The notes under the pieces were generated by a model. That model saw nothing but the letters and a program-made list of their open reading frames with translations, had not been told where the DNA came from and searched no databases. From Escherichia phage vB_EcoM-813R1: a DNA stretch of 64,000 nucleotides. Shown here one piece after another: positions 4,426 through 47,108 of this stretch. The stretch lies in sequence record ON470617.2, one strand, 5' to 3'. Position numbers and translations under genes: made by a program. The first letter of the stretch is position 1. Every line of letters starts with the position of its first letter.

Positions 4426-5496
4426 TCAGCCAACAGTGCTCGTGCAAATCTCTTGGTGGTTTTTCGACAAATGCCTCTTCAGCCACATCCTGCCAGGGAT
4501 TTGTTTAGCCCATTCAGCTATAGCGTTATGGTTTGCCGAGAATAACGGTATTGTATAGGCCTTCAGCCAGTCTAATGTGCTGGAGTTGTGTTTTTGAGCG
4601 TGATGTTTCGCATGGTGTTTGGCGATCACGATCGTAGGCACTACCCATTTACTACCGTCAGTCATTGTGAAGTGCATATTACGGGGAACAGATGACTTTT
4701 CCATCAACTCCCGAATCCCGGGAAATTTCCCCAAGATCAATCGGCGATATTCATCGCTATTGCGCCCACCAAACTCTTTGGCTTTGAATTCAAGATATGC
4801 TTCAGAAACGAGAGGTGAATCCTCTGTGTTTAGAGTTATCGCCGTGAAAAAACCAGCAGGATTGTTTTTACTATGGGCCAACCGGTGATGCGAATCATAA
4901 AAGTACCCTTTCTCGCGTTCCGATGGTTTCGACAGCAACAGCAGGCGCGAGTCATAATTGGTTAAATTGCCAGTTATCACTGCATGAGCGCGATCGCTGA
5001 TTTCCGCCGAGTTAATAACGATGAAAAGATCGTGCGGTCCAGTAAAACCAGCCAGAGACTCTTCGTTATTCAGACAATAGGTTATATAGACGCATCCCCA
5101 TGTTTCACTGATATGCACCAACCCTTTGTCAGGGTGTATTCTGAAATAATTGCCAAGAAAAGGGTGTTTTTGGGTAACTCGCTCCCAATAACGGAACATA
5201 TAGTCAATTATTGTTTTTCGACTATCGTTAATCGCAGGAGAAACAACCACTGTACGGGAACACGAATACAGTATTGTTTGCAGGATGCTAATCACTGCCA
5301 CAATAGAGGTTTCCCCAATACCATGTGGTGTGGTGGCAGTGACTTTGGCTCCGGTGTTCTTTATCGCGTTAATAATTTTTGCTTGATGAGGTGTTAACTC
5401 AATATCAAGCAACTCTTTTGCTGCCAGTTCCCAATTGTCTTTATACCGTTCTATCAGTGCTAACCAGGCAGATTCATTCTGTATACGATTAATCAC
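4426..5496 (-). CDS. Terminase large subunit (PacB)-like ATPase-domain paralog with degenerate Walker A/B and no nuclease domain
   Basis: Aligns from its N-terminus with the PacB in this window (28397..29881): shared KGYFYDSHHRLA / [12 protein letters not shown] and ITLNTEDSPLV / [12 protein letters not shown]-loop GHGTGKS is replaced by PHGIGETS and Walker B IIDEAS by VINSAE. Confidence 0.7.
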   Translation of the reverse strand: MINRIQNESAWLALIERYKDNWELAAKELLDIELTPHQAKIINAIKNTGAKVTATTPHGIGETSIVAVISILQTILYSCSRTVVVSPAINDSRKTIIDYMFRYWERVTQKHPFLGNYFRIHPDKGLVHISETWGCVYITYCLNNEESLAGFTGPHDLFIVINSAEISDRAHAVITGNLTNYDSRLLLLSKPSEREKGYFYDSHHRLAHSKNNPAGFFTAITLNTEDSPLVSEAYLEFKAKEFGGRNSDEYRRLILGKFPGIRELMEKSSVPRNMHFTMTDGSKWVVPTIVIAKHHAKHHAQKHNSSTLDWLKAYTIPLFSANHNAIAEWAKQIPGRMWLKRHLSKNHQEICTSTVG

Positions 5497-17579: not shown

Positions 17580-18020
17580 ATGGCCACACTATCTGATACA
17601 ATAAAACCGAATAAAACATATCTTGAGGCGGTACTGCGTACAGCGTTGTTAGGAAAGACAGAAGACGAATACGTTGATTTCTTCCTGTCAGGGCTACGCG
17701 GGCGATTACTGAAAAATCCCCGCCTGTACCGCAGCTATGGTCCATACTGGCCGGAAATTAAAAAATTATTACTGGAGCGCGGTTATGGTAATTTCGGTCG
17801 TCTCGTTGACCGTGACGTTCGCAAAATTTACCGTTATGACCGCCCGGCGCTAACACTCATAGCCGCGACGCTCTACAGCCAGGAGCGTTTTGATAATGGT
17901 CAGATATACTCAGCCTGGCATTTACTGCCAGTGCCTGAAGAAGTTGACGACCAGGACTATGAGTTTGAGTCTTACGATTTGGAAGTTGAAGCCTTGGCAC
18001 AGGCTGGAGAGAAAACTTGA
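17580..18020 (+). CDS. Hypothetical protein (146 aa); position of P1 ulx
   Basis: ORF directly downstream of darB; positional assignment only. Confidence 0.5.
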   Translation: MATLSDTIKPNKTYLEAVLRTALLGKTEDEYVDFFLSGLRGRLLKNPRLYRSYGPYWPEIKKLLLERGYGNFGRLVDRDVRKIYRYDRPALTLIAATLYSQERFDNGQIYSAWHLLPVPEEVDDQDYEFESYDLEVEALAQAGEKT

Positions 18021-18235
18021 AAAAGCGATACTACACAGTAAAGCATGGGACGCTACGAGCATTACAAGAGTTTGCTGACAAGCATAACGTTGAGGTGCGC
18101 AGGGAAGGGGGAAGTAAAGCTCTGCGCATGTACCGTCCGGACGGGAAATGGCGTACGGTCGTCGATTTCAAAACTAACAGCGTTCCCAGGGCGTCCGTGA
18201 CCGGGCATTCGAAGAATGGGAGCAGATCATCATAG
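18017..18235 (+). CDS. Small protein (72 aa); position of P1 lxc (bof, C1 co-repressor)
   Basis: Short ORF between the ulx position and mod; TTG start; positional assignment only. Confidence 0.4.
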   Translation: MKKRYYTVKHGTLRALQEFADKHNVEVRREGGSKALRMYRPDGKWRTVVDFKTNSVPRASVTGHSKNGSRSS

Positions 18236-18394
18236 ATAATGCATTGCTTCTCAATGCGGATTAAACTTCCCCAAATTATGGCTGTTTGCTCACCGAGCAT
18301 CGCTCAAAGAAGCACGATTCTTCAAACATATAGATAGTGATAGTGCCACAACTTCTGGCTCTAACGGGCTGGGGAGGCGGCGCTTTGTTGCTAA

Positions 18395-20355
18395 ATGATC
18401 TGGTTTAAAATGGATATGAAAAAAGAAACGATTTTTTCCGAAGTAGAAACGGCTAACAGCAAGCAACTGGCTGTGTTGAAAGCTAATTTCCCACAGTGTT
18501 TTGATAAAAACGGAGCCTTCATTCAAGAAAAATTGCTTGAGATTATTAGAGCATCGGAGGTTGAACTCTCTAAAGAATCATACAGTTTAAACTGGCTGGG
18601 TAAATCTTATGCCCGTTTGTTGGCCAATCTACCACCGAAAACGTTGTTGGCAGAAGATAAAACACATAACCAACAAGAAGAGAACAAGAACAGTCAAAAC
18701 CTGTTAATCAAAGGGGATAACCTCGAAGTATTGAAGCATATGGTTAATGCTTATGCTGAAAAGGTGAATATGATTTACATTGACCCACCATACAATACGG
18801 GTAAAGATGGATTCGTCTATAACGATGATCGCAAGTTTACACCAGAACAGCTTTCTGAACTGGCAGGTATCGAGCTTGATGAGGCTAACCGCATACTTGA
18901 ATTTACCACCAAGGGTTCAAGCAGTCATAGTGCATGGCTGACATTCATTTATCCTCGTCTTTATATTGCACGTGAACTTTTAAAAGAGGATGGAGTAATA
19001 TTCATCTCCATAGACGATAACGAAGATAAACAGTTGGGATTATTATGCGACGAAGTATTTGGGCAAGGTAATTTTGTTGCAAAACTCCCTACAATCATGA
19101 ATCTCAAAGGCAATCATGATAACTTTGGCTTTTCAGATACGCATGAATATATATATGTATACGCTAAAAACAAAGATGTTTGTAGTTTGGGGCAATTCGA
19201 TATTGATGAAAGTGAAGTTGAAAAAGAGTGGGATGAAGATGAATATGGGCTATTTAAAAGAGCTGATACATTAAAGCGTACTGGCCAAGATGCTTTTAGA
19301 AAATCAAGACCAAAAGGTTGGTTTCCGGTATTCATCAATTCAGAAAATAAGGTTTATGTAACAGATGATGATAAACCTCTTAACGAAGATGACTATGTAC
19401 TTTACCCAGTAAGCCCTACGGGTGAAGAGCTTTCATGGTCGTGGGGAAAGAAAAAATAAATGATGAGTTTTATAATCTAATAGTAATAGATATAAAAGAT
19501 GGTAAAAATATCTATAAAAAACAGCGGCCTGCTCTTGGAGAGCTACCAACTAAAAAGCCAAAATCAATTTGGTATAAACCTGAATATAGTACAAGCACGG
19601 CGACAACTGAGCTTAAAAATCTTTTAGGTGCAAAATTATTTGAAGGACCAAAACCTGTTCCTCTTATAACCGATCTTGTAAAAATAGGAACAAAAAAGGA
19701 TTCATTAGTTCTTGACTTTTTTGCTGGCTCTGGTACGACAGCAGAAGCTGTTGCATATTTAAATGAAAAAGATTCAGGCTGTAGGAATTTTATATGCATA
19801 CAAAAAGATGAAGTTATAAATAAAACAAAGAATGCCTATTCTCTTGGCTATAGATCTATTTTTGAAATAACAAAAAAAAGGATACAGGAGGTATTTAAAA
19901 AAAGCACAACCACAAGTGATAATGCGGCTAAAATAGGTTTCAAAGTGATTCATACTATTGATGACTTTAGAGCAAAAGTTGAGTCTGAACTTACGCTCAC
20001 TAATCATACATTCTTTGATGATGCGGTATTAACGCCTGAACAGTATGATGCCCTATTGACTACATGGTGTGTATATGATGGTAGCTTGTTAACAACACCT
20101 ATTGAAGATGTTGATCTTAGTGGCTATACAGCACACTTTTGCAATGGCCGTCTGTATTTGATTGCACCTAATTTTACTAGCGAAGCATTGAAAGCGTTGC
20201 TCCAAAAGCTGGATTCAGATGAAGATTTTGCCCCAAACAAAGTCGTGTTTTATGGTTGTAACTTTGAAAGTGCAAAACAAAGGGAGCTTAATGAGGCGCT
20301 AAAAAGTTATGCTAACAAAAAATCTATTGAGTTAGATTTAGTGGTAAGGAACTAA
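18395..20355 (+). CDS. mod: Type III restriction-modification methyltransferase subunit (EcoP1I Mod-like), one apparent frameshift
   Basis: IYIDPPYNTG (motif IV) precedes DFFAGSGTT (motif I), the beta-class order of type III Mod. ORFs 18395..19459 and 19435..20355 differ by one base in the A6 run 19451-19456. True start probably ATG 18410 or 18416 (MKKETIF). Confidence 0.9.
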
Positions 20356-20357
20356 TC

Positions 20358-23266
20358 ATGTCAAAAGGGTTCACATTCGAAAAGAACTTACCGCATCAGA
20401 AAGCAGGTGTCGATGCGGTGATGAACGTTTTTGTTTCCGCGACATCTCATCAGGAGGATAATGTTTCTATTCGCCTGTTAGTTAATCCAGAATTACGGCT
20501 TACTGAACAGCAATACTATAAAAATATAAAAAAGTTCAGGAACTCAATGGTATTGAACATGTAAAAAATAATTACGATGCTGGAAGCAACGTAATCGATG
20601 TTTCTATGGAGACAGGTACAGGTAAAACGTATACCTACACTAAAACAATTTTTGATCTGAACAAATCATTTGGCATTAATAAGTTTATCATTATTGTTCC
20701 TACTCTATCGATCAAAGCTGGAACAGTGAACTTTTTGAAAAGCGATGCGTTAAAAGAACACTTTAGAGATGATTATGAGCGTGAAATAAAGACTTACGTT
20801 GTTGAAAGTCAGAAAAATGCCGGTAAAAGCACAAAATCGTATATGCCTCAAGCTATACATGATTTTGTTGAAGCTAGTAATTTCAATAAGAAATATATAC
20901 ACGTTCTTGTTATTAACACGGGAATGATTCACTCTAAGAATTTAAATTCCACTTATGATGTTGGCTTGCTTGACAATCATTTTGATTCTCCCTTTTCAGC
21001 TCTTGGTGCGGTAAAACCATTCATTATCATTGATGAACCACATAAATTTCCTACTGGTAAAAAGACATGGGAAAATATAGAGAAGTTTAATGCTCAATAT
21101 ATTATCCGCTACGGTGCGACCTTTAGTGAAGGCTATAAGAATTTAGTTTATCGACTTACAGCAGTGGATGCATTTAATGAAGACCTTGTTAAAGGTATTG
21201 ATGCGTACATTGAGGATATTGTTGGTGATGGTGACGCCAACCTAAAGTTCATTAAATCTGATGGGGAAGAAGTTACATTTGAGCTAAATGAAAATAACAA
21301 GAAAACTTTATTTAAGTTAACAAAAGGTGAATCTCTATCTAAGACACATAGTGCTATTCACGATTTAACTCTTGATGCCTTAGGCAAGAATACAGTAGTG
21401 TTGAGTAATGGTATTGAGCTAAAAATTGGTTGCTCAATAAACCCCTATTCTTACGATCAGACACTTGCTGACAGCATGATGAGGAAAGCTATCAAAGAAC
21501 ACTTTAAGTTAGAAAAAGAGTTTCTGACACAAAGGCCACGCATAAAGCCTCTTACTCTTTTCTTTATTGATGATATTGAAGGTTATCGTGACGGTAATAA
21601 TATTGCCGGAAGTTTGAAAGCTAAGTTCGAAGAATATGTTTTGGCAGAAGCTAATGAACTGTTAAAAATAGAAAAAGATGAGTTTTATAGTAACTATCTT
21701 GAAAAAACAGTTAAAGATATATCTTCCGTTCATGGCGGTTATTTTTCAAAAGATAACAGTGATAAGGATGATAAAATCGAGAAGGAAATCAACGAAATCC
21801 TTCATGACAAAGAGCTTTTGCTGTCTTTAGATAATCCACGTCGTTTCATTTTCTCCAAATGGACGTTGCGTGAGGGATGGGATAATCCTAATGTCTTTCA
21901 GATCTGTAAGCTCCGTTCGAGCGGTAGTACCACATCCAAGCTTCAAGAGGTAGGGCGCGGTTTGCGTCTTCCTGTGAATGAATACATGTGTCGAGTGAAA
22001 GACCGCAATTTTACCCTTAAATATTATGTCGATTTTACAGAAAAGGATTTTGTTGACTCACTTGTTAAAGAGGTCAATGAGAGTTCTTTCAAAGAAAGGG
22101 TTCCAAGTAAGTTTACTCAAGAGCTTAAGGAACAAATCAGGGCTCAGTATCCTGAGCTTTCATCCAGAGCACTAATGAATGAACTTTTCAATGATGAAAT
22201 CATTGATGAAAATGATAATTTCAAAGATTCAGATGCCTACAGCCGCTTAAAATCCAAATATCCAGCAGCATTCCCTATAGGAGTGAAACCAGGTAAAATC
22301 AAAAAAGCTACTGATGGAAAAAGACGCACTAAAATGCGTGTTGGTAAGTTCAGTGAGCTGAAAGAACTATGGGAATTAATCAATCAAAAAGCGGTGATTG
22401 AGTACAAAATAAACAGTGAAAATGAGTTTTTATCCATTTTCAAGTCATTCATGCTCGAAGAAACAGAACGATTTACCAAATCAGGCGTTCATACTCGCAT
22501 TGATAAAATTTACATCCACAATGATATGGCAATGTCGAAAAGCATTGTTAGTGATGACGATGACTTTGCTAAGCTAAACACAATGAGTTATCGAGAGTTT
22601 CTCGATAACTTATCACAGACTATTTTTGTTAAACATGATACTTTACATAAAGTTTTTTGTGATATAAAAGACACTATTAATATCACTGAATACCTGAATA
22701 TTCAAACAATCAGAAAAATTAAATCTGGTTTTAGTAAGTATTTGTTGAACAATTCGTTTAACAAATTCAGCCTCGGATATAATTTGATTTCGGGTTCAAT
22801 TCATCCCACAAAGTTCACAAATGCTGATGGTAAGCCTCTAGACGAGGTATTATCAAGTGATCTTGGTGTATTACAGGATAATTCAAAAGCACCATTAGAT
22901 ACTTATCTTTTGAAGAGGTTTTTTATGATTCAGAGCTTGAAAGGCGTAATATAACAGATAGAGAGATCCAGTCTGTTGTTGTTTTTTCAAAGATACCGAA
23001 GAATTCTATTAAGATCCCGGTAGCTGGTGGATACACTTACTCACCCGATTTTGCTTATGTTGTAAAAACAGCAGAAGGTGATTATCTTAACTTTATCATT
23101 GAAACAAAAAACGTAGATAGTAAGGATAGTTTACGGCTTGAAGAAAAAAGAAAATTGAACATGCCAGGCGCTTTTCAATCAAATAAGTCAGTCTGTTAAA
23201 GTTGAATTCAAAACGCAGTTTGCTAATGATGATATTTATCAGTTAATCAAGAGCGCATTACCATAA
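20358..23266 (+). CDS. res: Type III restriction enzyme subunit (EcoP1I Res-like), several apparent frameshifts
   Basis: Helicase motifs METGTGKTYT and IIIDEPHKF; C-terminal nuclease-like FIIETK; frame changes at A6 run 20528-20533, near 22950 and near 23170; span equals ~969 codons as expected for Res. Confidence 0.85.
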
Positions 23267-23276
23267 TTCCAGTTTA

Positions 23277-23300
23277 AAAGGAGGTGAAAACCTCCTTTTT
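23277..23300. terminator. Rho-independent terminator between convergent res and the mat-position gene
   Basis: AAAGGAGG-TGAAAA-CCTCCTTT stem-loop followed by T-run. Confidence 0.6.
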
Positions 23301-23341
23301 ATGACATCCAACACGACCTGAAAGAAGTGGCGCTCAGGTCG

Positions 23342-23983
23342 TTAAAAATAGTTTCCCTTTCCAGTTAAGATTCCATGTGGAACGCTTTTTTCCGCAAGTC
23401 TCTGTGTGCCGCGAATTATGTTAATCAGTGGGCTTAGTAACGATGGTTCCTGGCGTGGCTCAACTTCTCCAGCCATTGCCCTGATGTAGTCGGAGTTTGC
23501 AACGTTGTTGTATTCCGTTGCGAAGCAGCATAACAACGTCAGAACGTGCTCTGTCGTTATTTCGCTCCAGTTGATGTTGAAAAATTCATCGCCTTTTTTG
23601 TCATGTTCGGAATCGAAGATGCTTTGGTGGAGGATGTATTTGCCGGATTCCTTGCGCGGTAACTTGATCGCTTTCTGGCGTTCCAATTCCTTGTAAATCT
23701 GCATTGCTTCAATCAGTACCGGTCTACCGTTCATGAAGGGATCACGCAACCTTACACGCTGGCCAACTCGACCGGTAATAAAGCTGTTTTCCTCTTCCAC
23801 CAGCACGATAAAACCCTTTTCCTCTTTTTCTCGCAATTCGCGCAGCAGCTGGAGTTCCATATCGCGGCGGCGTTCAGGGTAGCTGGTCCGCTCAGCCATT
23901 ATCAGCTCATTGTTGATCCATGCAGCAGTCATTGACGCCGGTTTGCCGACGCTCATTGAAACAACGCATATTTTCTTATCCAT
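23342..23983 (-). CDS. Hypothetical protein (213 aa); position of P1 mat
   Basis: ORF convergent with res; positional assignment only. Confidence 0.5.
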   Translation of the reverse strand: MDKKICVVSMSVGKPASMTAAWINNELIMAERTSYPERRRDMELQLLRELREKEEKGFIVLVEEENSFITGRVGQRVRLRDPFMNGRPVLIEAMQIYKELERQKAIKLPRKESGKYILHQSIFDSEHDKKGDEFFNINWSEITTEHVLTLLCCFATEYNNVANSDYIRAMAGEVEPRQEPSLLSPLINIIRGTQRLAEKSVPHGILTGKGNYF

Positions 23984-24162
23984 AGCGCCCCTACAAAAAG
24001 AAAAGCCACCAGCGGCGGCTTAGCAATACAACAGAAGGTAGCGCCCGGTACTCAGACTGTGCCGTCCATGGAATATTTGAAAAGGGATCCATCCGTACCG
24101 GGCGTGTGATGATTCTGACTCAAGTCACTTGTCAGTTGTCAATCATTTAAGATTAAAAATAA

Positions 24163-28396: not shown

Positions 28397-29881
28397 TTAT
28401 TCATTAAGCCATGCCAGAGCTTCATCAACCTGCGCTTCGTCTTCGACGCTAAGCACTTCATCCTGGGGAACATAATCAGCCAGCATAGCGAAACAATATG
28501 TATCCCAATGGTCTGGTGAGTGCAGGTTGAGTTTTTTCTTCATATCCTCCTTACTCATCACCTTCCATTGACCTGCGGAGTTAATCCCTACAGGGATTTT
28601 CGACGCTTCCTCAATAGTTTCATTACCCTTATCCAGTCTCATACGACCAGATTTTACGGCCTCTGCGGCTTGAACGTTGGCATAAGCACGTTTATCAAAG
28701 TACAGGCTCTTATCTTCACGGCTATGCATCTTTTTACCCCAGCGTATACGCTGTACGGTAATACCATAATACTCGTACATCAGATCCGCCGTTGCTTTAC
28801 CCAGGCCATCGCCGTCTATCGCTATGGTGATATTTGGGAATCGCTCAGGATTACATTCTGCGAAAATTTTGGCGGCAAGCTGCGTTTCTGTAACGTCTGT
28901 GTATTCCAGCATTCGATAGTTGATTACACGGCGTTTATTTCGCTGGCCGGACACCATCATGATATTGATAACGGACTTATCCCGTCCCGTACCACCAGCA
29001 ACGTCCACACATGCAAGCCAGCCCCATCCTTTTGCAATCTTGACTTTCCGCCGCGTTGCACGTTCAACCTCATCACGTCCAAGAAGGAAGCCATCCTGTG
29101 ATTTAGGGAATAGGCCGCGTACCTTAATCATGTACATAGGGTTATCACGCCCGCCGTACTCCGCCAGCTTCATTTTGATAAATGCTGGCGTTACCAACGG
29201 TGATTCCTCACTGTTAAGCGTGATCGCCGTATAAACGCCATCAGGGTTACCAGGACGCTTGGCCAGTTTATGGTGTGTATCGTAGAAATAGCCGCTTGGG
29301 CGTGTAGGCTGTGACAGCAATAAGATGCGGTTATCCTGTCCGGTAAGAGCACCGGTGATGATACCGAAAGCTCTATCACTGACACCGGAGGCTTCATCGA
29401 TAATATACAGAAGATGATCTGCGTGTTCACCGGCGAGAGCTTCTTCACTTCCCAGACGAAAGCCCTTCGGTACTACAGTCCATACACCTTTACCAGTAAT
29501 CTCATAGAAAGCGGTTTCTGTCAGAACAAAATAATCAGCAAGCCATGGGAAACGGCTGGTGGCAGTAGCCCAGTTTATCTTGATGTACTTGAATATACCG
29601 GTCATTACCTGCTGAATTTTGTTCGCAACGATAATGGCACGGGCACCTGGATACATGATTATGAACAACATGATCATGATAGAAGTCATGTCTGATTTCC
29701 CGGTACCGTGACCAGACGAAACAGATGTCTTGCTACCCTGTTCCTGCACAGACTCAATAATCAGATCCTGCTGCCAGGTAGGTGTTTTGCCGAACAAAAC
29801 ATCAGCGGCCGCAATCCAGTCATAACGATATAGCGCCACCAGCTCGCGCCAACGTGGATCCGTTACGCAACTTCTGGCCAT
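28397..29881 (-). CDS. pacB: Terminase large subunit PacB
   Basis: 494 aa; Walker [13 protein letters not shown], Walker [12 protein letters not shown]-terminal nuclease-like domain; immediately downstream of pacA. Confidence 0.85.
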
Positions 29882-39545: not shown

Positions 39546-40234
39546 TCTTCAAGGGATTTCTCCGCATATTCACCGGACAGGCCATCAATCGGATGCGGTT
39601 CATTAGCCAACTCTTCTTTCGCTGACAAAATCATGCGTGTAACGTCGAAAACTTCACGCAAAGATTTATTGATAAATCCGTGATTGAACGCAGCAGCAAG
39701 ACGGCTGGCGGTATAGTTAATCCCCTCGTTGCGTGCTTCCGCACGAATTTCAGCCAGAAAAGCATCGGTGGCTGAAATATTTCCTGTTGCCTTCATGGCC
39801 CCCAAAATAACCAGAACGCCATCTCGCCCAACCTCCTCAGCGATAACCTCGGTGTTGTCGCCAACAACATCGCAGAATGCCTGAACTGCCTTACGAGCCA
39901 GCTCATTCTCCGCCGCCAGCGCCGCGCACTTGGCCTCAAGAGCGGCAACCACTTCCTGATGGTCTTTGTACTTAACGTATGAGCCGGAGATGTCATCACC
40001 TTCGGTGTTTAGCCATGCGTCATTGCAATTCACTGCGTAGGTTCTGATGCTCATGTTGATGCTCTCCCGCCCCTGACAGACGCTAGGCCAGTCAATAAAG
40101 TATCCGCAATGCCTACCCTCAGACGTGCGCGCAGGATAAATGCCGTTATGACCCGGCAAAATATATGCTACCCATTCATCTTGCGTTGCCTGTTTCGCCG
40201 CCTCGCGCAGTTCTTTATAGTTAATTTCGCTCAC
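39509..40234 (-). CDS. Ead/Ea22-like protein (241 aa)
   Basis: N-terminus MSEINYKELREAAKQATQDEW, paralogous to 38654..39211. Confidence 0.5.
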   Translation of the reverse strand: MSEINYKELREAAKQATQDEWVAYILPGHNGIYPARTSEGRHCGYFIDWPSVCQGRESINMSIRTYAVNCNDAWLNTEGDDISGSYVKYKDHQEVVAALEAKCAALAAENELARKAVQAFCDVVGDNTEVIAEEVGRDGVLVILGAMKATGNISATDAFLAEIRAEARNEGINYTASRLAAAFNHGFINKSLREVFDVTRMILSAKEELANEPHPIDGLSGEYAEKSLEEWAEQIRKGGKQ

Positions 40235-40459
40235 TGGTTGCCTCCTTTACGGATCTGCGCTGCGATGCGCGAAAAAAGACTCCCGCGTATGACTGTTAAG
40301 AGCTGGCGCGAACGCTGCGTTAAGAACAGCAGCATCACAGCCGTCATCAATATAGAGCGCAATTTTTTCTCCAGGCGCGCTTTGGCTTCCTGCAACTGCA
40401 TACCCCGGCACGCACGCGGGATATAATCAGCAATTTGAGCGATAGCCTTTTCGTTCTGT

Positions 40460-40663
40460 TTAAACATGCTTCACCTCGATAGGCTTGATGGTGTCTAACA
40501 GCAGTCGGCGGCGCGTATTTTCTGCAAAATGGCGGCGTCCAGTTTCTTTGTGGTAAAACTCGTTTTTGCCGACGACCCACATCCGCTCTGTTTGGTGCAG
40601 TTTTTTTACCTGCGGACCGTCTTTGGTGATCACGGTGCCGGTATGGGTTTTTACGATTGTCAT
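40460..40663 (-). CDS. Hypothetical small protein (67 aa)
   Basis: ORF only. Confidence 0.3.
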   Translation of the reverse strand: MTIVKTHTGTVITKDGPQVKKLHQTERMWVVGKNEFYHKETGRRHFAENTRRRLLLDTIKPIEVKHV

Positions 40664-40746
40664 GCCACTACCTATTCGAACAGATGAACGAGACAGGCCG
40701 ATGCTCGTCCACCTGAAAAACTGACGATTTGATGCATACTCACGGT

Positions 40747-41475
40747 TTATTCCTGAATGCGCTTAAACTCGATTACCCACACCCAGGGATTAGCGTTCCA
40801 GCTTTCTTCACCATAGATGGATTCCCACAGACGCTGGAACGCAACCTTGGCCATTGCGAAATCCCCCTTGGGAGTAAGGAATGTTCCCGGGTGATCAGGA
40901 AGCAAACTTCCAGCAGGCGGAACGCCCTCATCCCTTGCATCGCATTCGCTGATATCGTTCAACCGCTCAACGCGCACGTTGGTAATTTCCAACAGGATGC
41001 GTGATGCCCATCGCGGCATGTGAATTGATGGACGCCACCCACCATCAAACTTTTCATTCACAGTGTGAGGTTTCCAGTCGGCATCATCGGGTATCGACCA
41101 TAAACCGTAATCACCAGGCTTTTGCTCACAACTGGCCCGATAAATCCTTGCTGCGTTCTTCTCATCGCCACGACAAAGGTTGTCGTTCCAGTCCACACTG
41201 CAACCATCTTCATTGCCTAATATCGCCCATGTTTCACGAACCCAAATTCGATCGCCGACGATACCAAAGGGGCAATTGAAAACACTGCTTACACCATCAG
41301 CCCCGTACCACTGAAAACCTGCACCAATTTCCCTAACCATCACTGGTGCTTCTGGACCAACTTCCGCAGGCTGATTTTTCATTATCCGCCGCGTCTGCGT
41401 TTTCCTTCCTTCGAGGATGGCTCGGACCATCTCATCGTTGAAAATCATGCCGCGCTCTTTCACTTCGCCTTTCAT
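40747..41475 (-). CDS. Hypothetical protein (242 aa)
   Basis: ORF starting MKGEVKERGMIFNDEMVRAILEGRKTQTRR; operator-like site upstream at 41652-41669. Confidence 0.5.
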   Translation of the reverse strand: MKGEVKERGMIFNDEMVRAILEGRKTQTRRIMKNQPAEVGPEAPVMVREIGAGFQWYGADGVSSVFNCPFGIVGDRIWVRETWAILGNEDGCSVDWNDNLCRGDEKNAARIYRASCEQKPGDYGLWSIPDDADWKPHTVNEKFDGGWRPSIHMPRWASRILLEITNVRVERLNDISECDARDEGVPPAGSLLPDHPGTFLTPKGDFAMAKVAFQRLWESIYGEESWNANPWVWVIEFKRIQE

Positions 41476-41651
41476 GCATCCCCTTACCCATGCGCGACGA
41501 TGCCGCCAAAAGTGATAGAGAACAGCCAGAAATAGATCGCGGCCATAATGATTTTGAATGCCGTGTTCATATTTTCAGCTCCTGTGATTGATTGGATACA
41601 TGCCGCGCCTTGCGGCATGTTTTTATTTTCACTTTCTCTGTTTTAAAAATC

Positions 41652-41669
41652 AATATTTATTAGAGCAAT
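41652..41669. promoter_or_regulatory. C1 operator
   Basis: AATATTTATTAGAGCAAT. Confidence 0.6.
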
Positions 41670-42175
41670 TATTGTTGGTGGAGAAGCGCGTTTTCATACT
41701 CCCTGACCATTAACGTAAGTACGCCGTGACTCCTGAAAACACGCGCCACTTCAATCTTATCTTCCAGCGCGAACGCAATTTTACTTAGACCAATTTTCTT
41801 CAGGAGATCAATCTTTGCTGGACCGTCATTTCTGTCATCGGTGGCAGGACGCATAGATAGCAAAGGCTCAGCCCCGTTTGTTACGTACTTCCGCAGCCAG
41901 GCTCGTGTTTTATCCCTTGCGATCTCACAGCGCCCGGTTACAAACCAGACCGTGTAAACGTTAAATAACTGGCGCACCATATCAATAACCGGAGTGATGG
42001 GAGTATCGGTGTCACAGGCGAGATTAAACTCGTTCCAGTCCTTTGTTAATGCACCTTTACCTGGTGGCGGAAGCAAATGCAGTCTGTCTTCAGTTGCCTC
42101 TGATATTGTTCCATCAATATCGACTATGACGATATACGGACGTTCCTGGTGTGCGTGTTTATTGAAAATACTCAA
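41669..42175 (-). CDS. HAD-superfamily phosphatase-like protein (168 aa)
   Basis: N-terminal motif I IVIVDIDGTI (DxDGT); resembles polynucleotide 3'-phosphatase / nucleotidase HAD domains. Confidence 0.55.
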   Translation of the reverse strand: MSIFNKHAHQERPYIVIVDIDGTISEATEDRLHLLPPPGKGALTKDWNEFNLACDTDTPITPVIDMVRQLFNVYTVWFVTGRCEIARDKTRAWLRKYVTNGAEPLLSMRPATDDRNDGPAKIDLLKKIGLSKIAFALEDKIEVARVFRSHGVLTLMVREYENALLHQQ

Positions 42176-42247
42176 ATGCCCTCCTCATTGGACGAAAAAA
42201 ATGCTGGTGGGCGCACTCCACCAGCATTAAAAGTGACGCTGTAACTA

Positions 42248-43450
42248 TCAGCGGACGTAAATAGTGCCGCCGTTCTCTTTTTCCCATGCATCGCTACGTG
42301 CATAGCAAACATCGAGAAGTCTTCTTGCCGCTGTTTCCTCTAAACCCAATTCGACAACCAACTGCTCATGACGGCGGGTAACCACATCAAACAGGGTATG
42401 CAACCCTTTAGTTGCCAGATCATCAATGAATTCCGGTTCGAACGGCAGCTCTGCATCTGCCAACATAACCTCTTGCGCCCACTCAACTCGACGGACCAAT
42501 TCCGGGCGGCGGCTTTCCATCTCTTTACAGATCAATTCATGGAAGAACTCTACCCAACCTTCCGGCTGGAACTCGCGGAAAATTGCCAACGGCTGGAAGT
42601 TTGGCATCAACCATTCGTTGATTCGGATATCAATGGCATAGCCCATGTCGCAGCAGAACTGATAAGCAAAGTCCAGCTTAGAAACGATATAAGGACGCTC
42701 GTTATTGAACTCTTTAGGCGATGAGATCCCATAAGCCAGGAGGCGCGGGAAGAAGGAGATTTGCCCTAACGTCGGATGAAGTTTGCTTGCAGGGAAACGG
42801 CGCTCAGTAATGCCATACATTTCCTTCTTGAGCGTCGCAAATTTGGCATTCTCATTAACCAGCGCGGTAACCTCTGCTTTTTTATTAGCAAATGCCACGC
42901 GCGCTTCGCTTGCATCTTTAATAGTTTTTTTGAGCTGTTGGTTAAGGTCGGCGACCTGCTTACGCAGTTCCTGTCGCTCGCTTTTAGCTTTGTTATAGCG
43001 TTTCTCAAGGTTAAAAGGATCAAGTTTCATGATCTCTTTATATTGAGATTTTAGCGTTGAAATCTGTGAGTTCCGCAGTTCAACCATCGCGGTCATTTCA
43101 TTGAGTTTTGTTTCCAGCTCAATGCTTATACGTTCGGCATTATCAGCACGCTGGTTGGCGTCATGCGTCGCATTGTCGATCGCGTCCTGTTGCTGGCGTT
43201 TCAAATGTTCAATTTGTAGCTGAAGCTCTTCAATTTCTTTACCCTTCAGACCGAGATCCAACTGCATATTTTCAGCTGCATCTACCAGGGAGTTATGGCT
43301 ATCAGCTTCTGCGTTATAAACATCAATAAGCTGTGCGTGAAGCATCTCCGCTGACTGAACCGCATTATCAAAAACGCGCTGTGAGGTCATCACAACTAAC
43401 GCGGCGTTGCGCGGCCCGGATGTTCTGGATAATGGCCGGGATACCGGCAT
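42248..43450 (-). CDS. Hypothetical protein (400 aa) with N-terminal coiled coil
   Basis: Long ORF upstream of the HAD gene; no catalytic motif recognised. Confidence 0.5.
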   Translation of the reverse strand: MPVSRPLSRTSGPRNAALVVMTSQRVFDNAVQSAEMLHAQLIDVYNAEADSHNSLVDAAENMQLDLGLKGKEIEELQLQIEHLKRQQQDAIDNATHDANQRADNAERISIELETKLNEMTAMVELRNSQISTLKSQYKEIMKLDPFNLEKRYNKAKSERQELRKQVADLNQQLKKTIKDASEARVAFANKKAEVTALVNENAKFATLKKEMYGITERRFPASKLHPTLGQISFFPRLLAYGISSPKEFNNERPYIVSKLDFAYQFCCDMGYAIDIRINEWLMPNFQPLAIFREFQPEGWVEFFHELICKEMESRRPELVRRVEWAQEVMLADAELPFEPEFIDDLATKGLHTLFDVVTRRHEQLVVELGLEETAARRLLDVCYARSDAWEKENGGTIYVR

Positions 43451-43509
43451 TCAGGACGTCAGGGATAGATACATTTTCGATTGATTGGTTTTGTGCTGAA
43501 GTGATCATT

Positions 43510-43728
43510 TCAAAGTTCCGTATTAGCTTGTGCTTCGGTCATTTTTCCTAAGTATGAAGGAGGAAGGACTACGCAATTTGTATCCAGTCCCTCACCTATG
43601 GCAGCCTGTAAAATTCTGGCTAAGGTGAGTCTCTTGTTGCGATACCTGGTGATGACATGCCTGATACCGCCGGTCGGCGTAACAAAGGCGATCAGCCAGT
43701 AGTGATATTTCCGTCGGAATGGCCACAT
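43510..43728 (-). CDS. Hypothetical small protein (72 aa)
   Basis: ORF preceded by an operator pair. Confidence 0.35.
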   Translation of the reverse strand: MWPFRRKYHYWLIAFVTPTGGIRHVITRYRNKRLTLARILQAAIGEGLDTNCVVLPPSYLGKMTEAQANTEL

Positions 43729-43742
43729 AGTGCACCTTGTAG

Positions 43743-43807
43743 ATTGCTCTAATAAAAACGTGATGAGTGTACATCACGTTTTAAAAATATGGAATTATTA
43801 GAGCAAT
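43743..43807. promoter_or_regulatory. Inverted pair of C1 operators flanking a 20-bp palindrome
   Basis: ATTGCTCTAATAAAAAC (43743-43759), palindrome CGTGATGAGTGTACATCACG (43759-43778), AATTATTAGAGCAAT (43793-43807). Confidence 0.6.
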
Positions 43808-43897
43808 ATTATTCTGATTCTCGCTCAAAAAATGAGCTGATAAGGGGGAGCCAATCCTCTGACACTTCGCGAGGTCGCGGTTTGCCGTGGAAAAAGA

Positions 43898-44509
43898 TTA
43901 TTCGGCAGTCTTTTGGTAATGCCCCATTCCCCTGGAGTAACGCGCGCTCGCATATTTTGAACCAGGTTCCACAACATCGGCCTTGTAACTTACAAACCAT
44001 CCTGGATACAGATCCTGAAATGCTGGTGTATCATCGCCCATAACCTTTCGTAAGAACCCCTGGTCACCCCAGCACTCAGTAGTGACACAACGAGAAATCC
44101 AACCTTCCGGATCTTGCCAGAATGAACTCCAGATATGCGCTTTAACACTATTTGGTATCCACAGGGCACCGCTACCACGATATTGTGGATGGTAAAAATC
44201 CCTAAGCATGGTGAAGCTGGTTGGTGGATGCTCTAGGATTGGGCGTATATCACCGGCAATAACCGTGTCCAAATCCAGATAGAACAGATCATCGGTTATA
44301 TCCGGTCGGAACAACTCGATTTTCGCCCACCAGCCACGGCACTTTTGCCACTGGTTGATCAATGGGATAACTTTGACGCCAGGTACATGTAAACACTTCA
44401 GGTCTGTCAGGCAAATAATTTCATAGTCTTTTGGCAGTTGATTAACCAGCCACTGCACATCGGAAGCGTTATAGTCACCACCAGAGCGAAGAACTAAAGC
44501 AATCTTCAT
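43898..44509 (-). CDS. Putative GT-A-fold glycosyltransferase-like protein (203 aa)
   Basis: DxD-type motif in [13 protein letters not shown]; overlaps ppp stop by 4 nt. Confidence 0.45.
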
Positions 44510-45198
44510 GCTGCACCATCACCTTTCACTTTCATCAATGTCAGGTTTCCGCAAAATACGGCACCAGTGTCGATATACTGCTGATTCCAGAATGTCTTCG
44601 GGCTTTTCACCGGAGTGTGACCAAAGATAAAACGATCTGCGCCCGAAATTTCGCCACCAATATCATCCATCGAATCACTGATACGCTCGCGCGCCCAGAC
44701 AACGTTGAAAAGCGGCACCTCCTTACCGAATTGGTATTCATTATCCGGATAGTCGGCATGGGCTATAACGATAGTTTCTTGCCCGGTGTTCAACTCAATG
44801 ATATAGGGCAGACGCTTTACCAGCTCCACCAGCGCCCTGGCTAATATTTCCTGATCAGTGTCCAGCATGAAGAACCATTGTCCGCCATTCATTAGCCAGT
44901 TATTCACGTTGCCATCAGGACTTAACGCATCGAGCATCAACCGCTCATGGTTCCCCATCACTGCCCTGAACCAGGGCATCTGCAATAGTTCCAGACATTC
45001 GACATTTTCAGTACCGCGATCGATAAGGTCGCCGACCGATATCAGTAAATCCTGCGCCGGGTCAAAATCCACACGATGGAGTTCGGACATCAGTCTGGTG
45101 TAGCAACCATGCAGATCACCAACAACCCAGACATTCCTGTATTTGGTACCGTCGATACGGTGATAAATTGTGGGTGCCATCATGTATTCTTCAGCCAT
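44506..45198 (-). CDS. ppp: Ser/Thr protein phosphatase (calcineurin-like metallophosphatase)
   Basis: Motifs GDLHG, GDLIDRG, GNHE as in lambda PPase; 230 aa. Confidence 0.85.
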
Positions 45199-45806
45199 TC
45201 TTTAAGAGTCATCTGCGGAATACCTCCCATTTTCCCGCATGAAACAACGTCAATCTGTTCACGCGCAGACTGGAATAACAAAGGCAGGTGACTTAGATTT
45301 TTTGGCGTGCCGCCGGAGTGAACGCGTAGTTCTTGCGTAGCGTCAACGCCCACCAGAGCTACATGTTTGAATCCGATATGGAAAGCCAGGTTCAGAGCAC
45401 CATATGCACTATTGCCGCTGGCAATTTCATTCTCATCTTCGCAAAGGCCGAAATGTGCGGACCAGCGCCACGCCCACCACTCGGGAGAATTCGTATTTTT
45501 TGGCTCCATGCCGCGTTCAGCCACACGACGGAAGCACAGAACGCCATCTCTGACTTCACGTTCTTTAACATCGGGTAGTGCCATGCAATAACAAACACCA
45601 CGGCGACGGCGGCCACGACCAACGCGCCGCATATTGTCTGGGGATGGATCAAGGGTGAAAAAATAAGAAGCGCGGTTCAGCCAGTCGATGGCCCCATTGA
45701 CCGCTATAATCGGCACTCCGCGCGGCGCAACAAAGTTTGCGGCGCTTGGGCCACTGCCGACGATAATAACGCGATCACTGCCTCTAAATTTATTCTTGGG
45801 AAACAT
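45180..45806 (-). CDS. GT42/DUF115-fold (sialyltransferase-like) protein, paralog 2
   Basis: VIIVGSGPS...[11 protein letters not shown]...[26 protein letters not shown] matches the Cst-II / MptE-like pattern (GNGPS, CNQF, SG..A..A..G..L.G.D). Confidence 0.5.
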
Positions 45807-46366
45807 TGAATTGCACTGCTCCTACTTGCATTCAAAATATGTAAATCTGCGTGTTTTTTGCGGGTATCCAGGAACTGCTGTTGCCATTTTGAAATAGACA
45901 CCTGCGTTGGATTCCGTAGGGCTTGAGGGTGCGCGCCATGCCAATGAAGGCCGTTTTGCAGAGAACAGTCATAGCCGACTAATACCACTACTTCAGCCCC
46001 TGATTCAGCAGCCAGACTGATAGCCTGCGCGCCGCTATTTACCCCTTCCGCCGGTCCACAATATCGCCTGTACTCCAACGAAAATGATTTCGCCGCCGCC
46101 AGGTTGGCTGTCACTTTGCGGAACCTCCCTCCCGGTATGGTGGAACCGTATTGCTTCCACCATGACAAATCACCGGCGTATAAGGCATAAATGTCATCGA
46201 ACATCTGCCAGGAATTGTTAACCGCGATGATTGAACAGCCAGTTTTTTCTATAGCAGCACAGTCCTCACGAGTGAGTGACGGACCGCTACCGACACAAAA
46301 AACAGTCCTAGTCGCCCTGGGTGGTATGTTCATTCTCAGCTGCAAATTCAGCCTCCAGGCGAGCAT
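45704..46366 (-). CDS. GT42/DUF115-fold (sialyltransferase-like) protein, paralog 1
   Basis: VFCVGSGPS...IIAVNNSWQ...VNSGAQAISLAAESGAEVVVLVGYD; ORF tail overlaps paralog 2 by ~100 nt, so its true stop is probably obscured by an indel. Confidence 0.5.
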   Translation of the reverse strand: MLAWRLNLQLRMNIPPRATRTVFCVGSGPSLTREDCAAIEKTGCSIIAVNNSWQMFDDIYALYAGDLSWWKQYGSTIPGGRFRKVTANLAAAKSFSLEYRRYCGPAEGVNSGAQAISLAAESGAEVVVLVGYDCSLQNGLHWHGAHPQALRNPTQVSISKWQQQFLDTRKKHADLHILNASRSSAIQCFPRINLEAVIALLSSAVAQAPQTLLRRAECRL

Positions 46367-46529: not shown

Positions 46530-47108
46530 TTAAGCAGCATGCAACCACTTATCGCCGTTCAATACATGCTCAATAGCCTCACCCTTTTTAAGACTTATGT
46601 ATTCCAGGATGGCGGTAATCGCTTGTTCTGCACCGTACGCAAGAACGACGTAGTAACCTTCCTCTCTAAGCCTGCGCATCCAGGCGATCTGCTCTTTCGT
46701 CGGGGCTTTACCATTTGGTTCTTTAAGCTCAATTCGCATGCCGTGATAAATACCGCATGCTTTATCGAGACTCATGTCCGGATAACCTTTTTTCTGCCCT
46801 TCAGCCTTCATTTTCCCGGCGGTTGCTTTTGAACGTTTCCCTCCGTTAGGCGTTGCATGCAACAGCTCATAGATGTCAGGGTGCTTGCGTTCGAAGTAAT
46901 CAAAAATGAAAACCTGCTCGAAGTGCTCGCAATTTCCGTCGCGCAGGTCTGGGTTCTTTGCAAGTGCTGCAAGTGCCTTCGCATGTGGAGAAACTTCTTT
47001 TACCGGCGCAAGCGATAAGAATGGATCCTTTTTGGTTTTTGGCCTGGACCGCCCCTTATTTCGACGCTCACTAAAAGCCTGAAACTCTTCCTCAGTAAAG
47101 CGCAACAT
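46530..47108 (-). CDS. VRR-NUC domain nuclease-like protein (192 aa)
   Basis: PD-(D/E)xK-type region ...GYPDMSL...RIELKEPNGKAPTKEQIAWMRRL. Confidence 0.55.
   Translation of the reverse strand: MLRFTEEEFQAFSERRNKGRSRPKTKKDPFLSLAPVKEVSPHAKALAALAKNPDLRDGNCEHFEQVFIFDYFERKHPDIYELLHATPNGGKRSKATAGKMKAEGQKKGYPDMSLDKACGIYHGMRIELKEPNGKAPTKEQIAWMRRLREEGYYVVLAYGAEQAITAILEYISLKKGEAIEHVLNGDKWLHAA

Follow-up and report, generated by a model that had tools for sequence, protein, structure and literature searches.

The window analysed here, a 64-kb stretch of DNA, comes from a P1-like phage. Its segment 41400-43800 is 98.3% identical to P1 (AF234172) and 98.6% identical to P7, and every full-length match to this segment is a P1-like phage, from Escherichia and Salmonella hosts. 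According to the P1 record, the two open reading frames (ORFs) at stake are pap and pmgS, preceded by pmgR. That record labels Pap a "putative P1 acid phosphatase" and gives PmgS, with its coiled-coil domain, a "putative morphogenetic function"; the P7 counterparts carry the names pap, shtB (PmgS) and shtA.

All three genes lie on the reverse strand, in a unit bounded by operators of the C1 repressor, as seen both in the P1 annotation and by pattern match in the window, where the operator pattern occurs 14 times against 0.34 expected. Upstream, one operator (P1 OpmgRa, 43791-43807, reverse strand) covers the pmgR promoter and, in the P1 annotation, "controls expression of pmgR and pmgS"; a second (P1 OpmgRb, 43743-43759, forward strand) was also recovered by pattern match and is annotated in P1. 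The first gene, pmgR (43510-43728), encodes a 72-aa protein that is 100% identical to PmgR of P1 and P7 and is a conserved upstream neighbour of pmgS; it is essential for head completion (PMC9024508). The in-frame part of pmgS (42248-43369) is followed by a 72-bp spacer and then by pap (41669-42175), an ORF of 168 aa with a TTG start and a strong GAGGAGGG Shine-Dalgarno sequence. The spacer holds an intrinsic-terminator-like hairpin and U-run (42190-42228, reverse strand): an 11-bp stem with six GC pairs, then a T-run in the DNA, present in both the minimum free energy and the centroid fold. Abutting the pap stop codon is a further C1 operator (P1 OpmgT/Op88, 41653-41669, reverse strand), ATTGCTCTAATAAATAT, with one mismatch to the consensus and annotated in both P1 and P7. 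P1 and P7 share with the window the gene order, the C1 operators and the intergenic terminator; the downstream gene pmgT differs in length, with 242 aa here and 309 aa in P1. An Rfam search of 40000-45000 returned just a sub-threshold GcvB match (E = 0.25), which we take as chance. Since the P1 and P7 records carry both genes and the operators are present in the window, neither pap nor pmgS is new: both have been on record since the P1 genome was annotated, and the phage too is known.

This copy of pmgS is interrupted. Native PmgS has 420 aa in P1 and P7, and the window splits it into a 46-aa ORF (43368-43508, reverse strand), whose residues 1-46 match P1 PmgS and represent the true N-terminus, and a 400-aa ORF (42248-43450), whose in-frame part covers approximately residues 47-420 of the native protein. 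A three-way DNA alignment and a direct read of the sequence place the cause in a homopolymer at 43370-43374 (reverse strand), which is T5 in the window and T7 in P1 and P7. Because this two-base change splits pmgS, the 400-aa ORF begins with some 26 residues read out of frame, and no ribosome-binding site is visible in front of them. The frameshift aside, the protein is 99% identical to P1 PmgS. The sequence-only reading had described "a 400-aa coiled-coil protein": the coiled coil holds, being modelled as long helices, and the 400-aa length is an artefact of the frameshift. The 46-aa sequence is exactly WMM35475.1 of Escherichia phage vB_EcoM-813R1. E. coli contigs carry similar fragments of 46-55 aa, and a single 47-aa variant accounts for 129 of these contigs. 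An exact search of viral contigs gave no match to the T5 frameshift variant, and the 400-aa ORF is absent from a collection of 15 billion proteins. In a survey of 77 P1-like phage-plasmids, pmgS is among the 21 genes that match 100% of the P1 gene length (PMC9603915). The T5 run is either a homopolymer sequencing error or a recent inactivation.

The same reading had found no recognisable catalytic motif in PmgS. Single-sequence comparisons are uninformative: NCBIfam, PADLOC (SMC, Rad50 and LmuB hits) and the PDB return coiled-coil noise only, and a fold search of BFVD gave nothing at E < 0.1. PmgS does match PHROG 1660 over the full length of the family (E = 1e-182, residues 22-400), and in its model long helices span residues 42-160 and 166-232, a small beta domain is present, and the helical C-terminus is confidently predicted. 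A profile built from 58 family members matches the RAD51 N-terminal domain (8e-8) and the RNA polymerase alpha C-terminal domain (2e-6); among these members, 17 of the 58 reach Pfam HHH_5 and 12 reach RNA_pol_A_CTD. P1 PmgS taken alone has a degenerate second hairpin (LGLEE) and falls below Pfam significance. On the strength of the family profile and of the Pfam matches of its members, the PmgS C-terminus is an (HhH)2 domain, i.e., two helix-hairpin-helix motifs in a five-helix domain, so the protein is not featureless. The N-terminal domain of RAD51/RadA and the C-terminal domain of RNA polymerase alpha are of the same type; unlike those proteins, PmgS has no recombinase or polymerase core and carries its (HhH)2 domain on a coiled coil of about 190 residues and a small beta domain.

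The combination of a coiled coil with an (HhH)2 domain makes PmgS a probable DNA-binding protein, and the (HhH)2 domain points to DNA binding (or protein docking) over a structural role. Relevant to this, 24 mutants show no plaquing defect, and the in-frame deletion of pmgS is among them; the same virion proteome paper (PMC9024508) does not name PmgS anywhere in its main text or its tables; pmgS was also non-essential by CRISPRi (PMC10695390). In phiARM81mr, the PmgS homologue is found amid integrase, RecT, exonuclease and Dam genes. The normal plaquing, the absence from the proteome paper and the phiARM81mr context are all consistent with a non-structural protein. We considered the prohead scaffold function given as the GenBank label in phage D6 and rejected it: the D6 gene lies between pmgR and the tRNA genes, away from the capsid genes, and the phiARM81mr neighbourhood is the one just described. 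Given the (HhH)2 domain and the dispensability for plaque formation, the labels "head morphogenesis" and "sheath contraction" attached to PmgS are probably wrong.

Pap and PmgS had also been described as paired. What we observe is adjacency, and it is only in P1, P7 and Cronobacter phage JK004 that Pap comes after PmgS; the JK004 PmgS and Pap are 69.5% and 74% identical, respectively. In the JK004 spacer, a hairpin of different sequence followed by U8 occupies the same place, which indicates that the terminator between the two genes is conserved as a structure. It would be tempting to see in this arrangement two components of one machine, with Pap recruited to DNA by the (HhH)2 domain of PmgS: P1, P7 and the 70%-identical JK004 share the order pmgR-pmgS-pap, the domain in PmgS is of a DNA-binding type, and pmgS and pap transcripts shift together in an hfq mutant (bioRxiv 10.64898/2025.12.28.696737). 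We nevertheless regard this as very improbable indeed. The conserved terminator separates the genes; all of the more distant PmgS homologues examined, in D6, phiARM81mr and about six metagenomic loci (L007, L009-L014), have no Pap in their flanks; and more than 1,100 phages have Pap-like genes without PmgS (1,174 against 26 records). PmgS-like proteins are rare, with those 26 phage records and 118 clusters among 1.84 billion representatives. Their recurrent neighbour is a PmgR-like gene of 68-77 aa in P1/D6-type elements, and a PmgR homologue precedes the PmgS homologue in JK004, L007 and L010-L012. The pairing of Pap with PmgS reflects gene order inside one lineage, and PmgS would have a separate, probably DNA-binding, function with PmgR, not Pap, as its conserved companion.

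Pap itself was correctly recognised as a HAD-type phosphatase with a DxDGT motif, D19-I-D21-G-T23, and as resembling polynucleotide 3'-phosphatase domains. It is 97.6-98.2% identical to Pap of P1 and P7. Its sole Pfam match is PF25109, HAD_PNKP, at 46 bits (gathering cut-off 27.6; E = 7.8e-12), and NCBIfam and PADLOC gave no match. It belongs to PHROG 415 (E = 3e-57) and to PHROG 505, both named "polynucleotide kinase". Within the latter, a family of bifunctional length (295 positions), Pap aligns to positions 156-292 only, which are the phosphatase half. A single-sequence search of the PDB yielded a marginal Pnkp1 match together with spurious matches to designed TIM barrels, and a family profile was required. 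Built from Pap and relatives 57-99% identical to it, and searched against all PDB sequences, this profile placed bacterial Pnkp1 first (4xrp, 3e-6) and the T4 Pnkp phosphatase next (5uj0 and 1ltq, 9e-6 and 7e-5), with no other phosphatase at E < 1. Foldseek agrees, with Pnkp1 (2e-5) and T4 Pnkp taking ranks 1-7, and with identities of about 21-23% in the structural alignments; the AlphaFold2 model of Pap is mediocre (pLDDT 63.7) and the fold search therefore has limited weight. These comparisons support the assignment of Pap to the Pnkp-type 3'-phosphatase clade, which NCBI naming ("3'-phosphatase") already reflects.

A placement among sugar phosphatases or housekeeping HAD enzymes would speak against a nucleic-acid role, and neither Pfam, nor the PDB profile, nor Foldseek puts Pap there. 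Two versions of a role outside nucleic acids can be imagined. Pap might be a phosphoprotein phosphatase similar to Fcp1/Scp1, and the capless HAD site could equally well accept a phosphoprotein, or it might act for the glycosyltransferase-like PmgO, PmgP and PmgQ encoded nearby, as a sugar-phosphate or "acid" phosphatase. The original GenBank label leans that way, PmgQ matches a glycosyltransferase PHROG, PmgO and PmgP match sialyltransferase or MptE-like families, and the lower Foldseek ranks hold HisB-N, class C acid phosphatases, lipins, CTDNEP1 and Scp1/CTD phosphatases. These structural matches are, however, 10 to 1000 times weaker than those to Pnkp1 and T4 Pnkp, sequence searches of Pfam, NCBIfam and the PDB brought up no such family, and pap and pmgO/P/Q belong to different C1-controlled units. 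We think it decidedly unlikely that Pap is anything other than a nucleic-acid enzyme.

The HAD motifs of Pap are D19-I-D21-G-T23 (I), T80-G-R82 (II), K121 (III) and E138-D139 (IV). Inside the Pap cluster T80, R82, K121 and D139 never vary, and D19, D21 and T23 hardly do; among stand-alone phage members 29-74% identical to Pap, D19, D21, T23, T80, G81, R82, K121 and D139 are all invariant, and position 138 is E or D. R31, R82, R109 and D117 are likewise invariant in these stand-alone homologues, and correspond to other essential residues of T4 Pnkp (R176, R213, R246 and D254). The HMMER alignment brings D19, D21, T80, K121 and D139 onto D165, D167, S211, K258 and D278 of T4 Pnkp, so that each cited catalytic residue has a counterpart: in T4, D165 is the nucleophile, D167 the general acid/base, S211 and K258 contact the phosphate and D278 is a Mg2+ ligand (PMC3592404). 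By homology, Pap would then be a stand-alone Mg2+-dependent DxDxT acyl-phosphatase of the clade formed by the T4 Pnkp C-terminal domain and bacterial Pnkp1. Asp19 would attack the terminal phosphate to give an aspartyl-phosphate intermediate, Asp21 would be the general acid/base, the phosphate would be gripped by Thr80 and Lys121 and probably also by Arg82, and Asp139, probably with Glu138, would bind the metal.

The C-terminal 3'-phosphatase domain of T4 Pnkp (pseT; 1ltq, 5uj0) has the DxDxT fold and the CDTD motif in common with Pap. T4 Pnkp has in addition an N-terminal P-loop kinase domain that Pap lacks, and its motif IV reads D-D where that of Pap reads E-D. Between motif I and CDTD, Pap has a longer stretch, which bears RLHLLP and W47, the signatures of the subfamily of stand-alone phage proteins. 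The best solved match by both sequence and fold, Pnkp1 (4xrp), belongs to the bacterial Pnkp1-Rnl-Hen1 RNA repair complex, where it is a kinase-phosphatase fusion acting with a dedicated ligase and Hen1 (PMC4411300). At the level of a motif scan, none of the Pnkp1 partners is encoded in the window. In eukaryotes, yeast Tpp1 and plant ZDP are stand-alone DNA 3'-phosphatases, HAD enzymes of the PNKP branch with no kinase domain. Their likeness to Pap is a functional analogy only, namely the proposed freeing of a 3' end for use by a cellular polymerase or ligase.

Pap-like genes of about 160 aa are present in 1,174 of 50,697 phage records, mostly from Klebsiella and Escherichia phages. We inspected their context in four genomes. 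In KpV48, the Pap-like gene comes after those for an exonuclease and endonuclease VII; in GH-K3, it stands between DNA repair exonuclease and dNMP kinase; and in JSE, it follows nrdA and nrdB, while in tonnikala (Drexlerviridae) all neighbours are hypothetical proteins. The JSE genome also has a second, separate Pap-like match elsewhere. In the three informative contexts, Pap-like genes sit amid DNA and nucleotide metabolism. Such neighbours raise the idea that Pap serves the nucleotide pool, as a 3'-(deoxy)nucleotidase that salvages the 3'-mononucleotides set free by nucleases, and does not repair ends: Pap overlaps the end of nrdB in JSE and immediately precedes the dNMP kinase gene in GH-K3, and the T4 phosphatase has been assayed with 3'-TMP (PMC3592404). 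We find this rather unlikely. The neighbours of pap in P1 are not genes of nucleotide metabolism. Capless HAD enzymes, moreover, generally prefer macromolecular substrates.

The sequence-only reading had placed Pap near the phage tRNA genes and proposed an RNA or DNA end-healing pathway that counters host anticodon nucleases. The vicinity fails, because the three tRNA genes (54939-57167) are 12.8-15.5 kb from pap. The pathway is not supported either, as its expected partners are missing. With 168 aa and no Walker-A motif, Pap does not have the P-loop 5'-kinase domain of a bifunctional Pnkp. A motif-level scan of all ORFs of at least 70 aa in the 64-kb window found Walker-A only in a PacB-like ORF (28397-29881) and a Ban-like ORF (53289-54659), with no convincing ligase KxDG context and no small P-loop or polynucleotide kinase candidate. 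At this level, the kinase and RNA ligase that a T4-type RNA heal-and-seal system draws from the same phage were not seen in the window.

Pap could still provide the healing step of tRNA repair as in T4, with the phage tRNAs taking part and the host, or genes we did not recognise, supplying kinase and ligase; this would protect P1 from host anticodon nucleases. The T4 Pnkp phosphatase, of the same clade, removes the 2',3'-cyclic phosphate from cleaved tRNA, the pmgR-pmgS module of phage D6 adjoins a tRNA cluster, and pap is non-essential in laboratory strains, as a counter-defence gene would be. The D6 example is, however, one of tRNA adjacency without pap, and the missing kinase domain, the lack of small kinase or ligase candidates in the window and the roughly 13 kb between pap and the tRNAs count against this proposal, as do the contexts of Pap elsewhere in DNA and nucleotide metabolism. 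A host route through RtcB would gain nothing either. E. coli RtcB joins 3'-phosphate or 2',3'-cyclic phosphate ends directly to 5'-OH, and for this reason the removal of a 3'-phosphate is of no use to it. Taken with these points, a role of Pap in tRNA repair seems quite improbable to us.

The dispensability of pap rests on CRISPRi knock-down (PMC10695390) and on an in-frame deletion (PMC9024508), both in laboratory E. coli; it fits an accessory role without identifying that role. One could imagine that Pap is a counter-defence enzyme, stripping the 3'-phosphate or cyclic phosphate ends left by a defence nuclease, and, separately, that PmgR-PmgS is an early DNA-binding module misfiled under morphogenesis. 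If true, Pap would act on phage DNA or on host or phage RNA, with host polymerase or ligase completing the repair, and the upkeep of a dispensable gene by P1-like elements and by over 1,100 further phage genomes would be explained. We consider this reading unlikely.

The explanation that we favour, with moderate confidence, is that Pap is a stand-alone, Pnkp-clade accessory phosphatase that unblocks 3' ends and that PmgS is separate from it. The most likely substrate of Pap would be a DNA or RNA end that carries a 3'-phosphate or a 2',3'-cyclic phosphate, and removal of the phosphate would leave a 3'-OH usable by host polymerase or ligase. Such logic would resemble that of the kinase-less eukaryotic DNA 3'-phosphatases, unlike the full T4 heal-and-seal pathway, and DNA appears somewhat more likely than tRNA as the substrate. 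In the literature searched, we found no biochemical report on Pap, nor one that characterises a stand-alone Pnkp-type phage phosphatase, and the substrate is proposed from homology. As for expression, pap would be the last gene of the early, C1-repressed pmgR-pmgS unit, probably reached only by read-through of the conserved terminator, and would act as an accessory gene that laboratory hosts can do without.

The additions made here are small, namely the pmgS frameshift in this copy and the (HhH)2 domain of PmgS. The practical outcome is a corrected annotation of Pap as a Pnkp-clade 3'-phosphatase, as public databases already state. The label "polynucleotide kinase", copied to hundreds of its phage homologues of about 160 aa, is wrong because these proteins have no kinase domain. 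Stand-alone Pnkp-type phosphatases are widespread in phages, and P1, for which a pap deletion exists, would be a convenient system in which to study them.

An intrinsic terminator lies between the coiled-coil protein gene pmgS and the downstream gene of the stand-alone HAD phosphatase, pap (42190-42228, minus strand), and does not appear among the P1 features listed over that stretch. It has a counterpart in Cronobacter phage JK004 (locus L005, about 5285-5316), where the structure is kept and the sequence differs. Expression of pap must depend on read-through or on an unseen promoter. Within pmgS itself, the T-run at 43370-43374 has two bases fewer than in P1 and P7, which shifts the reading frame. 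Because truncated N-terminal PmgS fragments of 46-55 aa recur on E. coli contigs, a 47-aa variant being present on 129 of them, this homopolymer is either a real mutational hot spot or a tract prone to sequencing error.

The pmgT homologue (40747-41475) encodes 242 aa, compared with 309 aa in P1, and the downstream region counts among those that vary between P1-like elements (PMC9603915). The pap-pmgT spacer holds a GC-rich hairpin with a T-run (41598-41620, plus strand), oriented opposite to the genes and overlapping the start of a 44-aa ORF; a match to GcvB in the same spacer region is sub-threshold (E=0.25). In phage D6 (locus L003, 4558-8119), clustered genes for tRNA-Asn, tRNA-Thr and tRNA-Ser lie about 1.2 kb beyond pmgR-pmgS, and no pap is present at this locus. 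Elsewhere in the window, GC content is 0.36-0.39 in the block 18001-24000 and about 0.48 outside it, which suggests a foreign or variable insert.

A second phosphoesterase, Ppp, is encoded 2.3 kb from Pap (44506-45198) and is of the lambda calcineurin-like type. Calcineurin-like enzymes are the other phosphoesterase type used in RNA end healing, in the bacterial Pnkp of Clostridium thermocellum, and cyclic phosphodiesterase activity is known for lambda phosphatase. The closeness of Ppp to Pap is probably a coincidence, though P1 has enzymes of both types.

Hundreds of Pap-like phage genes of about 160 aa are labelled "polynucleotide kinase" or "3'-phosphatase, 5'-polynucleotide kinase"; they hold the phosphatase domain only, and the kinase labels are propagated misannotation. 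As for the neighbouring "morphogenetic" genes, PmgQ (43898-44509) matches a glycosyltransferase PHROG, while for PmgP (45180-45806) and PmgO (45704-46366) the hits are to sialyltransferase-like PHROGs, with the Pfam MptE-like family as a further, weak match. A CTP_transf_3 cytidylyltransferase is also found on a distant P1/D6-like contig (L007, 10588-11352). These three genes may form a glycan-modification module. PmgM (46530-47108), which matches VRR-NUC and Holliday-junction-resolvase-type PHROGs and falls slightly below the cut-off for Pfam VRR_NUC, looks like a case of DNA metabolism behind another "morphogenetic" label.
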